A DNA stretch of 64,000 bases from Candidatus Latescibacterota bacterium (GTDB lineage Bacteria > Krumholzibacteriota > Krumholzibacteriia > WVZY01 > JAKEHA01). Below are positions 25,819 through 37,406 of this stretch, piece by piece. Both the position numbers and the translations under genes were made by a program. Under the pieces are notes generated by a model. It was not told where the DNA came from and made no database searches. It saw only the letters and a list, made by a program, of their open reading frames with translations. The first letter of the stretch is position 1. Each line of letters starts with the position of its first letter. The stretch covers positions 704,001-768,000 of the forward strand of contig OY970173.1 of assembly GCA_963707635.1 (NCBI GenBank), written 5' to 3'.

Positions 25819-26730
25819 ATGCGCGCGAGCAACGAATCCGGCATGACGTGGCACGGTCAGATCAACCGGACCATCTGGGAGATCAACGAGGCGATCAAGA
25901 AGGCGCCCGACAATCCGCGCCTGCGCCGCGAGCTGCTGCGCGCGCAGTTTCTGCAGCACTTCGAGTTCGACAAGGCCTACCACGTTCCCCGGGACGATCG
26001 GACCTTCCTGTTTCTGCACGACGCCGACGCGCCGATCGTGCTGTTGCTGCACGGATCGCAGGGAACGCCGGCCGAGATGCGGGAGCTGGGCAACCATCTC
26101 CACTCCCGGGGGATTTCCGCGTACTGCCCGCGCTTCACGCGCACGAGCGGCAAGGACGAGCCGGTGTCGTGGGAGTCGTGGGTGACGCAGGCGCAGATCG
26201 CGCTGGAGAGCGTATGCACGTGCTCGCCGGCCGCGTTCGTGTGCGGCTTGAGCCTGGGCGGGACGGTCGCGCTGATCCTGGCGGAGCACGCGCCGCTGGC
26301 CGGGATGATACTGCTCGCGCCGGCGCTCTATCCGCGCATGGGTCTGAAGGCCCGTTGCCTGCAGCTGACCCGGGTGGTCACGCCCACCGTCTTCTATCAC
26401 TTCGCGGGCTGGACGGGCGAGGTCCTGAAGGCGATGGACCACGCGCGCAAGCAAACCCGTGAGCTCAAACTGCCCGTGCTGGCGCTGCAGTCGGCGGACG
26501 ACCGGCACCTGTCGCCGCGCGGACTCAAGTTCCTCCGCCGCCGTGGGGGCCACCCGGGCAGCGACTTCCGCCTGCTGGCGGAGGGTTCGCACGCGATCAT
26601 GCGCGGCGCCGCGAAGGCCGAGGTGTTCGAGGCGGTGTCCGGGTTCGTCGAGCGCAACGCGCGCGGGGTCAAGGTGGTGGCGGCGGTCCCCGACGCGCCG
26701 GCCGCGGAGTCTATATCTGATCCATCGTGA
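25819..26730 (+). CDS. Alpha/beta hydrolase (carboxylesterase-like)
   Basis: LLHG..G, GLSLGG nucleophile, ADD Asp, GSH His. Confidence 0.85.
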   Translation: MRASNESGMTWHGQINRTIWEINEAIKKAPDNPRLRRELLRAQFLQHFEFDKAYHVPRDDRTFLFLHDADAPIVLLLHGSQGTPAEMRELGNHLHSRGISAYCPRFTRTSGKDEPVSWESWVTQAQIALESVCTCSPAAFVCGLSLGGTVALILAEHAPLAGMILLAPALYPRMGLKARCLQLTRVVTPTVFYHFAGWTGEVLKAMDHARKQTRELKLPVLALQSADDRHLSPRGLKFLRRRGGHPGSDFRLLAEGSHAIMRGAAKAEVFEAVSGFVERNARGVKVVAAVPDAPAAESISDPS

Positions 26731-27484
26731 AGCGGAACGATTCGTCGAGACGCTGAATCTTCTTCACCAGTTCGCGCAGTTTTTCCCTCAGCTCCGGGTC
26801 TTTCCCCTTCATGTACGACGAATAGAGGTCCAGGAACTCGTCCTGGAGGGCGCGCAGCTCGCGATCGGATTCGATGCGATCGATCGAGCGCTCCAGGTGA
26901 TACACGTCGCCCGACGATAGTCGCTCGAGGATGTTGAAGTACTCCCCGCGCATGTGGCTCAGGATCTGGACGTACTGCTCGAACCCGCGCGAGAGCTTCT
27001 CGAGAACCTCGCTGATGGCGGTCGCCTTGCGGAACATCGCCTGGCTGTACGAGTAGGCGAACTGGTAGTAGGCTTTCGCCCGCCCCACGTAGACCTCTTC
27101 GTTGTCCTTCATGAACGCATCCTTCGACCCCGGCCGCGAGACGTCCGGGTTGCGGAAGATGCCGATTGATATGAGCAGGAAGTCCGCGTTGGTCTTGTAG
27201 ATCGTGTACTTCAGGCGCACGTCCGGCGAATTGCGGATCTTCTCGAAGAGGTCGCTGTCATAGCGCGACAGGAACTTGCGGGTGCGCTCGTGGTAGTCCG
27301 GATTCATGAAGGACGTGAGCAGATTGGCGAGGTAGACGTTCACGTCCTCGTCGTAGTAGGTCTGGTTCGAGGGGTTTCCGGACTCGAGCCGGCTGTAGAG
27401 CAGACAGTTCATCATGAAGAAGAACGTCGGCTCGAGGTCGCGACCGCCGCCCGGCCCGATGGTGATATGGGTTCCGCCGTCCAT
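26711..27484 (-). CDS. Hypothetical protein (all-helical, DEDVNVYLANLL motif)
   Basis: Protein-like composition with GC3-rich codons; preceded by a sigma54-type site. Confidence 0.75.
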   Translation of the reverse strand: MDGGTHITIGPGGGRDLEPTFFFMMNCLLYSRLESGNPSNQTYYDEDVNVYLANLLTSFMNPDYHERTRKFLSRYDSDLFEKIRNSPDVRLKYTIYKTNADFLLISIGIFRNPDVSRPGSKDAFMKDNEEVYVGRAKAYYQFAYSYSQAMFRKATAISEVLEKLSRGFEQYVQILSHMRGEYFNILERLSSGDVYHLERSIDRIESDRELRALQDEFLDLYSSYMKGKDPELREKLRELVKKIQRLDESFRFTMDQI

Positions 27485-27572
27485 CTCGCGTCCGTTTTGT
27501 CTCCGTCGCTGTCGGTGTGCCGCGACCGATGAGTCCCACCGGTCCGCCGCGATTGCCGGCAGGGGCGAAATC

Positions 27573-27588
27573 TGCAAGCCCCATGCCA
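27573..27588 (-). promoter_or_regulatory. sigma54 -24/-12 promoter
   Basis: Minus strand TGGCATG-GGGC-TTGCA, about 90 nt upstream of the start at 27484. Confidence 0.7.
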
Positions 27589-27843
27589 CGGATTTCCGCG
27601 CGAGGGCTCCGGTGGCGCCCGACCGTCGCCAACCGTTGATTCCGCCTCTTGCTACTAAGATACCGGCAGAGATGGCCGGCCGATAGCTGCCGCGCCGCCG
27701 GAGCGGCTCCCCGGGGTGCAACATATTGTCAAATTGATGATTATGTCAGGCGGCCGGCTCCCCCGACTCGTGCCGCCGATTCCGTTTCGAAAATGCGGGT
27801 GAGTTGGGGTATAATGGCTCCGGCGACGGCATCGATTTCATTG

Positions 27844-27856
27844 TAACTGGTTGATA
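27844..27856 (-). promoter_or_regulatory. IHF-consensus site
   Basis: Minus strand TATCAACCAGTTA matches WATCAANNNNTTR. Confidence 0.4.
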
Positions 27857-36612: not shown

Positions 36613-36849
36613 ACGCGGTGACTCGCGCGCGCAGCGAGCGCCGAACCGCTCGACTACGTGCGACCACGTCACTTACGCTCCACGGAACGCTCCCTCGGAT
36701 CCGCTCTCCCTGACAACCCGCGCAACATCGTGCCGAAGCGATTCCCTCCGCGTCGACCCATTGATCGTCCGCGTCCAATCCCGCCATCTGCAAGCACGAC
36801 AATGGTTCGCCGCCGATCGACCGCGCGTGGTGGTCCAGTCGCGGCGGGT

Positions 36850-36864
36850 TGGCACCGGCCTTGC
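36850..36864 (+). promoter_or_regulatory. sigma54 -24/-12 promoter
   Basis: TGGCACC-GGCC-TTGC. Confidence 0.6.
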
Positions 36865-36988
36865 CTAGGGGAACGTTGACTCGCGGTGGGCCGGGGCACA
36901 CGATGCGCGGCGACGGGCGGCGGTTGTGGTGGTGCGGGGGAAGACGTCGCCGGCGCGAACTCGTTCCGAAATCACTGCGTGACAGAAT

Positions 36989-37197
36989 AGAAGAGGGAGC
37001 AGGGACGGGGGTGGAAGGGAGGAGCCGCCTTCGGACCGCGGGTGCGATCGACGAAAGCGCCGGAGCCGGGTGGAAATTCCCGCTTCGAGCGTGCGCAGTC
37101 AGCCGGTCGAGGTGGGTGTGCTCGCTGAATCCCAACTCGCAGGCTGCCACCCGGATGAGGGCGCGGCCGTCGATCGTGGTCCGCTGCTCCCTCTTCT
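36989..37197 (+). ncRNA. Candidate long rod-like structured ncRNA (strand tentative)
   Basis: Nested inverted repeats: 14-bp 36989-37002/37184-37197, 37032-37038/37177-37183, 37045-37053/37168-37176, 37057-37061/37160-37164, 37066-37073/37147-37154, 37100-37104/37142-37146. Confidence 0.55.
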
Positions 37198-37406
37198 TTC
37201 TCTTTCTCCCCGCGCCCGCCCCTGGCACTCGATCCAGCTTGTCGCCGTCCGGCAACCTTCCTTATATTCGAACATCTTCGCGCCGGCGCGAAACGCGCAA
37301 GCGGGTGGCGCCGATACGGGGCCCCCGCGGCGGATGCCGCGGGGTGGATCGGCGACAGGACCCGCGTCGCCGCTACGAGAACGATTCGAACCATCGCGAG
37401 GACATC

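Follow-up and report, generated by a model that had tools for sequence, protein, structure and literature searches.

Relation to described systems

The closest described relatives of the gene cluster analysed here are the Wsp-type chemosensory pathways of the alternative cellular functions (ACF) class, which is defined in PMC3447774. In such pathways, for example Pseudomonas WspA/WspE/WspR, one cluster encodes a receptor, a CheA to which CheW-like and receiver domains are fused and, for the turnover of cyclic di-GMP (c-di-GMP), a multidomain response regulator. The same combination is found at positions 26711–37210 of a 64,000-nucleotide stretch (the window; positions 704,001–768,000 of contig OY970173.1, assembly GCA_963707635.1) from Candidatus Latescibacterota bacterium (phylum Krumholzibacteriota), whose genome is a single contig of 3.2 Mb with a GC content of 66% and a completeness of 96%. 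The locus differs from the ACF systems in that its CheA-like protein (hereafter pseudo-CheA) is without the phospho-His and the ATP lid and carries a pseudo-receiver, and in that its genome has no match to CheW, CheR or CheB. Its output, moreover, is an HD-GYP protein together with a predicted dead paralogue, and it has in addition a helix–turn–helix (HTH) gene, a gene that we call hypA and an RNA. Judged from the sequence, the ACF core set of methyl-accepting chemotaxis protein (MCP), CheA, CheW, CheR and CheB therefore appears incomplete, whereas the multidomain response regulator expected as the output in the cluster appears to be present as a REC-GAF-HD-GYP protein.

A second point of comparison is the polar complex of CheA and the phosphodiesterase Pch (DipA) of Pseudomonas aeruginosa, in which CheA localizes Pch and an H49N mutant of CheA retains this localization, according to PMC3861689. 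CheA there serves as a localizing scaffold for a c-di-GMP phosphodiesterase, as is proposed here, but the P. aeruginosa CheA is an active flagellar chemotaxis kinase and Pch is an EAL protein. The locus may work like an ACF/Wsp pathway crossed with a CheA–Pch scaffold, yet it would belong neither to the CheA kinases nor to the ACF systems. No paper on the locus was found by a literature search with subscription journals and supplements outside its coverage.

We tentatively propose that the cluster, with its four sigma54-type boxes, derives from a Wsp/Frz-type pathway, and that its receptor and kinase, having lost the residues for phosphorylation, may form a membrane-anchored scaffold which positions c-di-GMP breakdown for type IV pilus behaviour. 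We regard this proposal as possible, if somewhat short of probable.

The CheA-like protein

The pseudo-CheA gene (30818–32776, plus strand) encodes 652 residues with an Hpt-like P1 domain, a P3 domain, a P4 domain without a lid, a CheW-like P5 domain and a pseudo-receiver. The protein has the CheA domain order (Hpt, dimerization, HATPase, CheW and, as in hybrids, REC), and the same CheA-REC layout occurs in FrzE of Myxococcus. Its predicted structure (pLDDT of 87.6) gives CheA or core signalling units as the top eight fold matches, with the P4 fold modelled confidently. It aligns with a canonical Hpt-HATPase-CheW-REC CheA over its full length (hhalign, 99.7%, 646 columns) and with a WspE-labelled protein over its C-terminal two thirds.

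Residues were tallied over 83 rows for pseudo-CheA, 92 for the pseudo-HD-GYP protein and 78 for the intact HD-GYP protein. The position of the P1 phospho-His is Arg43 in the window protein, and across the rows it is Arg in 60, Lys in ten, His in one and another residue or a gap in 12. The Asn of the N box is Asp in all 83 rows (Asp268), the Asp of the G1 box (Asp297) is kept in 80 and the second Gly of G1 in two, and deletions have removed the ATP lid and most of G2. By its P1 position, its N, G1, F and G2 boxes and its missing lid, pseudo-CheA is predicted not to be a CheA kinase. The phospho site of the receiver is Glu in the window protein and Asp, without the acidic pair, in other members, a tally that is unreliable because rows lacking a receiver misalign.

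The dead domains are all under purifying selection. The ratio of nonsynonymous to synonymous substitution rates (dN/dS) was computed against four same-genus genomes, with dS near 1, so that the values are rough; it is 0.13–0.27 over all dead domains of the locus and 0.15–0.27 over those of pseudo-CheA, with 0.23 for P4 and 0.19 for the pseudo-receiver versus 0.36 for the intact receiver of the HD-GYP protein. No CheW, MCPsignal, CheR or CheB match was found anywhere in the window genome. The earlier note on this DNA had stated that no cheW, cheR, cheB or cheY is present in the window; for cheR and cheB this extends to the whole genome, but a CheW-like domain (P5) and a CheY-like receiver are present, fused into pseudo-CheA.

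The receptor-like protein and its tail

The preceding gene (28988–30793, plus strand) encodes a degenerate chemoreceptor of 601 residues with two close N-terminal hydrophobic segments (only about 30 residues lie between them, as read by eye), a putative MCP-type hairpin, a long acidic linker and the C-terminal sequence DLYALGAV. The window protein has no Pfam match. Seven of 18 orthologues match MCPsignal with E values of 1e-6 to 5.5e-4, none of them reaching the cut-off, the tip motif is partly kept and the Atlas neighbours of the protein are MCPs. Like pseudo-CheA, it appears to be of chemosensory ancestry. It is nevertheless predicted to fall outside the MCPs, which have an extracellular ligand-binding domain and are subject to methylation by CheR/CheB; such methylation is improbable because the 96% complete genome has no CheR or CheB match.

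The tail motif (Asp586–Val593; 30743–30766, plus strand) has the consensus D-L-x-x-(L/F)-G-A-V, follows an acidic linker of variable length and has a dN/dS of 0.18. Leu587, Gly591 and Ala592 are invariant in 34 rows. Families of the phylum are coded f1–f9 here, f1 being that of the window and f1 and f2 together making up its order. The tail is repeated in tandem in several f3 loci. In a set of 50 loci it persists, often in tandem, in those f3 loci that lack P1, P4, P5 and the active phosphodiesterase but encode the STAS-GAF-pseudo-HD protein. Eight f3 loci that retain at most a STAS stub do not have it, nor do the six f6 loci of the set; variant tails occur in L196, L205 and L063, and L207 is cut short. 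This distribution narrows the likely partner of the tail without proving one. A complex prediction for residues 570–601 of the receptor with two copies of the GAF-pseudo-HD-GYP region (residues 205–575) scored 0.00 against a mark of 0.32, which is evidence neither way.

The HD-GYP pair

Two HD-GYP proteins are encoded downstream. The first (33274–35019, plus strand; 581 residues) has a STAS domain, a linker, a GAF domain and a pseudo-HD-GYP domain that is predicted to be catalytically dead but has kept RxxR, the guanine motif. The HD dyad is RD in 91 of the 92 rows, the Asp of the AD(x)FD motif is Glu in 87 and other metal ligands are replaced, by which the protein would not qualify as an active phosphodiesterase. 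It keeps the HHE, GYP and RxxR motifs, with Arg526 in 75 and Arg529 in 88 rows. The second (35038–36612, plus strand; 524 residues) is a REC-GAF-HD-GYP protein with intact metal ligands, an RPYR motif and the phospho-acceptor Asp53. Its catalytic residues are present in 76–77 of the 78 rows, the rest being gaps, and the fourth position of RxxR is Arg in 68 and Ser in eight. With its HD dyad, HHE, GYP, metal ligands and Rxx(R/K) motif it is predicted to be an active HD-GYP enzyme. The dN/dS values of the two HD domains are similar (0.13 for the dead and 0.16 for the active one).

The receiver of the second protein keeps Asp9, Asp10, Asp53 and Lys104, Asp53 being present in 72 of 78 rows. A description of the module as phosphorylation-dead consequently holds for the receptor and pseudo-CheA, the residues of which are lost, but not for the locus as a whole.

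The HD, HHE, GYP and RxxR motifs of the REC-GAF-HD-GYP protein are shared with GAF-HD-GYP enzymes such as PmGH, and according to 10.1101/600031 RxxR marks HD-GYP proteins of the c-di-GMP type and not of the cGAMP type. By this rule, the RxxR motif of the pair would indicate c-di-GMP rather than cGAMP as the ligand. The REC-GAF-HD-GYP protein differs from the cGAMP-specific PmxA and Bd2325 of that source in that it is not of the Rxx(Q/N) type, and it is paired with the RD paralogue. The window genome has five GGDEF and eight HD_5 matches.

Sigma54 boxes and the wider regulon

Four boxes of the GG-N10-GC type had been reported by the earlier note, and all four are present. Box 1 (27573–27588, minus strand; TGGCATGGGGCTTGCA; 18.4 bits) precedes hypA, box 2 (28887–28902, plus strand; TGGCATGTTCCTTGCG; 21.3 bits) the operon of the MCP-like and CheA-like genes, box 3 (32906–32921, plus strand; TGGTACGCTTCGTGCT; 17.0 bits) the operon of the HTH, STAS-GAF-pseudo-HD-GYP and REC-GAF-HD-GYP genes, and box 4 (36850–36865, plus strand; TGGCACCGGCCTTGCC; 18.1 bits) the RNA element. 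Measured from box end to gene start, the first three lie 88, 85 and 61 nt upstream of hypA, the MCP-like gene and the HTH gene, within the 60–90 nt that had been claimed. The bare pattern carries no meaning in this genome, as its 64,823 occurrences are at the level of chance (63,373 simulated). In contrast, TGGYAYN5KTGC occurs 71 times versus 13 simulated (five-fold), with four of the 71 copies inside the 12 kb locus. A position weight matrix (PWM) trained on 77 boxes from relatives and then run over the window genome gave 37 sites of at least 16 bits versus two simulated, boxes 1–4 ranking 12, 1, 22 and 14 in the genome.

The boxes are conserved in orthologous upstream regions, as scored with the commonly known consensus at a threshold of at least ten of 11 matches and with shuffles as the expectation. 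Box 1 is present in 68 of 74 distinct regions (1.0 expected), all six misses being in f3, and box 2 in 57 of 57 (0.65 expected). Box 3 is found in f1, f2, f6 and f7 and, in a weaker form, in f3, and is absent from f4, f5, f8 and f9; box 4 is kept in f1 and f2, and f5, f8 and f9 have a weaker box in the corresponding position. The weaker f3 boxes were picked up by the PWM scan and missed by the regular expression. The gene rpoN is present in the window genome and in 127 of the 128 phylum genomes, each at least 90% complete, that were used for the rpoN and pseudo-CheA counts, and sigma54 activator domains give 19 matches in the window genome, 14 of them full-length. The features of sigma54-dependent promoters (a −24 GG/−12 GC box, rpoN and activator genes) are thus all present. 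An RpoN-dependent start is expected about 12 nt beyond the GC; RNA contigs of relatives start at 32942 (one) and 32958 (two studies, with adapter-like loose ends), a weak hint of a start from box 3. These RNA data consist of contigs holding only 5–7% of the words and hence give no strand, level or habitat.

A candidate activator site, TGCAAACTGC, lies 108 nt before box 2 (28779–28788, plus strand), and a second copy lies 76 nt before box 3 (32830–32839, plus strand). The site before box 2 is kept, at roughly −110, throughout f1 and f2, while f5 and f8 carry a variant of it; the copy before box 3 is exact in four of the five same-genus loci shown and is not found in other families. Of the eight copies of the generalized motif TGCAAA(A/C)(T/C)GC in the genome, three are no more than 200 nt away from a strong box (box 2, box 3 and that of pilB, out of 42 such boxes; 0.02 expected). 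As the motif was derived from box 2, only box 3 and pilB count as independent matches.

Other boxes of at least 15 bits precede genes for a pilin, PilM, PilB, a minor pilin, an MglA-like GTPase (so labelled by eye, with a weak Arf match only in Pfam), prkA-DUF444-spoVR and two GGDEF proteins; strong boxes also precede genes for an RNA-recognition-motif (RRM) protein, a SpoIIE-type phosphatase and an FHA protein. The Pfam search behind these names covered 38 of the 118 open reading frames (ORFs) called. Co-regulation by sigma54, as the earlier note had proposed, is borne out by the conserved boxes, rpoN and the shared upstream motif; its developmental or cell-polarity program needs a shift of emphasis, as the other strong boxes fit type IV pili, MglA-type polarity and PrkA-SpoVR better than they fit a proven program of development. 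The same note had made its account depend on rpoN, on box conservation in orthologous loci and on synteny in relatives, each of which was found.

Integration host factor (IHF), sigma54 and MshEN motifs are known as consensus sequences. Scored in this way, the 12 kb contain one perfect and three one-mismatch IHF-like sites, in agreement with the claim that such sites lie nearby, versus about 1.5 expected at up to one mismatch, a modest excess. The perfect site (27844–27856, minus strand) lies between hypA and the nitrilase gene; a one-mismatch site (32876–32888, minus strand) lies just before box 3, with similar sequence at the same place in f1 as read by eye.

Further boxed genes are present in the genome. 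The prkA-DUF444-spoVR operon (L169, 4297–8972, minus strand) lies behind a 16.6-bit box, and of two near-identical tandem RRM genes (L170, G000:C1:953300–954250) the second lies behind a box of 16.7 bits. A boxed REC protein with a partial GGDEF match (L173, G000:C1:334634–335685) is encoded a few kilobases upstream of two large HD_5 proteins (327543–331316). Strong boxes without a convincing ORF behind them (G000:C1:1662943, 2537533, 2569297 and 240329) may mark further small RNA genes.

Synteny, distribution and losses

The gene order is kept, as far as the contigs reach, in 35 loci picked from the best CheA-like matches, some of which have lost the nitrilase gene or the last gene. Full pseudo-CheA is encoded in 63 of the 128 genomes: 7/7 in f1, 8/8 in f2, 3/3 in f4, 26/26 in f5, 9/9 in f7, 4/4 in f8, 1/1 in f9, 4/58 in f3 and 0/11 in f6, plus the window's own. 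Most f3 loci have lost P1, P4 and P5 together, and f6 retains only the HTH gene, accompanied by hypA in seven of the nine f6 loci read, each with a box. Canonical CheW is found in 0/7 f1, 1/8 f2 and 0/3 f4 genomes and is common in f3, f5 and f8. Since pseudo-CheA is present in all searched f1, f2 and f4 genomes although canonical CheW is rare there, it does not merely restrain a normal pathway. Outside the phylum set, 80 distant metagenome loci with hypA were kept and the 50 of at least 4 kb were examined; in most of them an MCP-like gene lies divergent from hypA, together with a CheA remnant and a REC-GAF gene, in the vicinity of guaB. In one locus (L215, 4119–5888, minus strand) the receiver of the CheA remnant keeps the acidic pair DD, Asp, Thr and Lys, and Ser occupies the phospho site of the REC-GAF protein encoded downstream, which is opposite to the situation in the window.

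The RNA element after box 4

The structured non-coding region that the earlier note had placed after box 4 is in fact a conserved, covarying RNA-like element, and is supported as a real candidate for a non-coding RNA (ncRNA). The predicted ncRNA of about 320 nt (36876–37207, plus strand) has a 5′ hairpin with a G/U-rich loop (36916–36944) and a U-rich end. A long-range helix pairs 36989–37002 (AAGAGGGAGC) with 37184–37197 (GCUCCCUCUU) on the plus strand and is followed by U-rich sequence, and a hairpin presents an invariant GGGAGGA loop (37017–37023, plus strand). The 5′ hairpin, with its C-poor G/U-rich loop, the long-range helix and the GGGAGGA hairpin are common to the order. The folding z score is −3.1 for the window and −0.9 to −8.0 for 20 sequences (12 shuffles each). 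Both sides change in eight of nine pairs of the GGGAGGA hairpin, which beats slid controls, although relatedness can inflate the shuffle test; for the long helix, changes on both sides are seen in L042, L043 and L078, and the helix was not found in L036, L076 and L085. Searched with a model of the 5′ part, 30 of the 35 genomes of the order, including some outside the training set, gave a single copy each, and 115 other genomes gave no match.

A shorter hairpin with a similar loop occurs with covariation at the same place in f5, f8 and f9 (28/35, 7/7 and 1/1). The model of the short form gave no match to the long form in six loci with filters off or in 22 f1 genomes; as the forms do not cross-match, their homology rests on position and the G/U loop only. 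After the REC-GAF-HD-GYP gene of the f3 loci L152, L154, L162 and L164 there is a sigma54-like box with GGGAGGA at +47 to +49 and a hairpin, perhaps a third form. In one genome (G031:C1:3101738–3101884) the ncRNA lies about 220 kb from the HTH gene, the locus there being broken inside the STAS gene.

No Rfam 15 family, including 6S, Csr/Rsm, Pxr and the riboswitches, matched near its gathering score in the window or four orthologous loci, and a genuine 6S RNA is present elsewhere in the genome. The Pxr sRNA of Myxococcus is under sigma54 control, and CsrA-sponge RNAs are a known class. The element resembles both in being a stand-alone structured RNA, probably sigma54-driven, with exposed purine-rich loops; it differs in its length, its long-range closing helix and its lack of an Rfam match. 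It lacks the features of a CsrA-sponge RNA, as it has one invariant GGGAGGA loop instead of many GGA loops and the window genome has no csrA match (PF02599). A small ORF after GGGAGGA is unlikely because no start codon is conserved there, and a role as leader of the following M16 peptidase gene was rejected, since in some relatives the gene after the element is a different one and since the M16 gene has a sigma70-like promoter of its own, as read by eye. The minus-strand reading, with a CUCCUCCC loop, is disfavoured by the orientation of the box; the plus strand has the lower energy in 20 of 20 sequences, partly through G-rich bias. Counting complements of the G/U loop singled out no target. 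The element most likely acts in trans, as a sponge or by base pairing, and would expose its GGGAGGA and G/U-rich loops for this. It is a candidate new RNA family.

The RRM proteins of L170 are candidate binders of the G/U-rich loop of the ncRNA. The sigma70-like pair before the M16 gene (TTGTCG, 18 nt, TATATT; 37239–37268) has similar counterparts in same-genus relatives. A GC-rich palindromic hairpin also precedes that gene (37295–37366); each of the five RNA runs has contigs that match it and go on into unrelated sequence, as expected of a REP-like repeat.

The HTH gene, hypA and flanking genes

The first gene of the third operon (32983–33207, plus strand) encodes a 74-residue HTH_17 protein of the Xis/BldC-like type (PF12728, E = 1.2e-13). 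BldC, EUO and excisionase-like proteins are small HTH_17 regulators, and like them it is a stand-alone protein of about 70 residues; it differs in being almost invariant, single-copy and chromosomal across the phylum, with no integrase in the locus. It was matched in 196 of 208 phylum genomes, in a single copy in all but one, and its dN within the genus is 0 (dN/dS of 0).

The hypA gene (26711–27484, minus strand), divergent from the MCP-like operon, encodes an almost all-helical protein of 257 residues with a dN/dS of 0.11, a pLDDT of 83.9 for its model and 333 representatives at E ≤ 1e-10. No Pfam family exceeded its cut-off in 35 orthologues, no Foldseek match reached E ≤ 0.001 and the best VIA-align hit (Z of 7.3) covers a helical hairpin only. 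Its sequence clusters carry no informative names; in the Atlas, hypA-like clusters are labelled Eisenbacteria and Omnitrophota, which is a lead only. Profile, fold and residue analyses agree with the gene content given by the earlier note, which had, however, left out the syntenic carbon–nitrogen hydrolase of the nitrilase family inside the span (27938–28744, plus strand; PF00795, E = 2.5e-41). This gene is missing from the f7, f3 and f6 loci. The flanks are conserved, with an alpha/beta hydrolase gene and guaB on one side (24982–26730) and cdaA-folP-ftsH on the other (40080–43805; guaB, cdaA, folP and ftsH were named by eye).

A possible mechanism and its alternatives

In the scaffold that we propose, one activator would act at the TGCAAA(C/A)TGC site that operons 2 and 3 have in common with the pilus genes, so that all of these are co-expressed. 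The receptor hairpin may still bind P5 of pseudo-CheA and cluster at the membrane, and the DLYxLGAV tail could tether the STAS-GAF-pseudo-HD-GYP protein, whose RxxR motif would allow it to bind c-di-GMP but not to cleave it. This protein may in turn partner its active homologue, the REC-GAF-HD-GYP enzyme, so creating a local c-di-GMP sink, with the receiver of the enzyme phosphorylated by a kinase that would be encoded elsewhere. The HTH protein and the RNA would be further outputs of the same program. The physical link between the chemosensory pair and c-di-GMP turnover is what we infer.

Several observations weigh against this proposal. In Pseudomonas the phosphodiesterase activity of Pch still needed phosphorylation of CheA, according to PMC3861689. 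The two f4 loci L062 and L065 have the pseudo-HD protein but no clear tail, and the tail-less loci, which are kin and not independent, have also lost the whole upstream block, so that the joint loss of tail and pseudo-HD is not specific. The parts of the locus are separable in evolution, as seen in the receiver of pseudo-CheA, missing in f5, f8 and f9, and in the f6 and f3 genomes, few or none of which have the full-length protein; the distant hypA loci outside the phylum set are without the tail and gave no match to HTH or STAS. Before box 3 the upstream motif is confined to one genus, the N-terminal c-di-GMP motif of the genome's PilB looks degenerate (RIA for RLG, by the general consensus) and expression of the ncRNA rests on two contigs of depth below 3 that lie wholly inside the element, which is weak.

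The units might instead have a sigma54 activator and their place on the chromosome in common and yet function separately. The receptor and pseudo-CheA would then mark the pole for proteins of the pilus or of MglA-type polarity, with the RNA, the HTH protein and the HD-GYP pair as independent outputs. Operons 2 and 3 do have their own promoters in five families, losses in f3, f6 and the outside relatives are independent, the intact receiver needs an outside kinase and strong boxes lie on pilus and MglA-like genes, which makes this a serious, if doubtful, alternative. It accounts less well for the absence of box 3 from f4, f5, f8 and f9, where all five genes are therefore probably one transcript, for a tail motif that tracks the pseudo-HD-GYP protein and for an order of receptor, CheA and REC/GAF output that is kept even in distant relatives. 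We consider it improbable that pseudo-CheA is not inert and that its P4 pocket binds a nucleotide or metal and switches conformation, the pair then signalling allosterically and not only as a scaffold. The ATP lid and most of G2 are gone, the second G1 Gly survives in two of 83 rows and P1, P4 and P5 were lost together in most f3 loci, against which stand the invariant Asp268 (83/83), the conservation of Asp297 (80/83), the confident model of the P4 fold and its dN/dS of 0.23. Least probable is a slowly decaying chemosensory relic beside an essential HTH gene and the housekeeping neighbours guaB and cdaA-folP-ftsH. Such decay would fit the stepwise losses in f3, the loss in f6 and an HTH gene far more conserved than the rest, but every dead domain has a dN/dS well below 1, identical substitutions have become fixed in different families, box 2 is present in 57 of 57 regions and every searched genome of seven families has one pseudo-CheA copy. 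A relic is largely refuted for f1 and may hold for parts of f3. Taken together, the evidence favours the scaffold over separately working units, then the allosteric switch and then the relic.

The proposal can be pushed further, to a receptor–CheA core fully converted to a phosphorylation-free device, the tail of which would grip the pseudo-phosphodiesterase so that this contact, by conformation or by tethering, controls c-di-GMP, within a sigma54 pilus–polarity program that has a new class of regulatory RNA of about 320 nt and a phylum-wide master HTH regulator. In this strong form we think it unlikely.

Implications

Chemosensory arrays are understood as machines for the control of a kinase. 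A receptor–CheA pair that is maintained by selection without any of its phosphotransfer residues, in genomes that lack other che genes, would show that the architecture can be used independently of phosphorylation, and the locus would be a natural minimal system in which to test array signalling by scaffolding or conformation alone. The pseudo-HD-GYP protein with its intact RxxR motif is a candidate new c-di-GMP receptor, and for an uncultured phylum the regulon is a first sketch of how pilus and polarity genes may be organized into a program.

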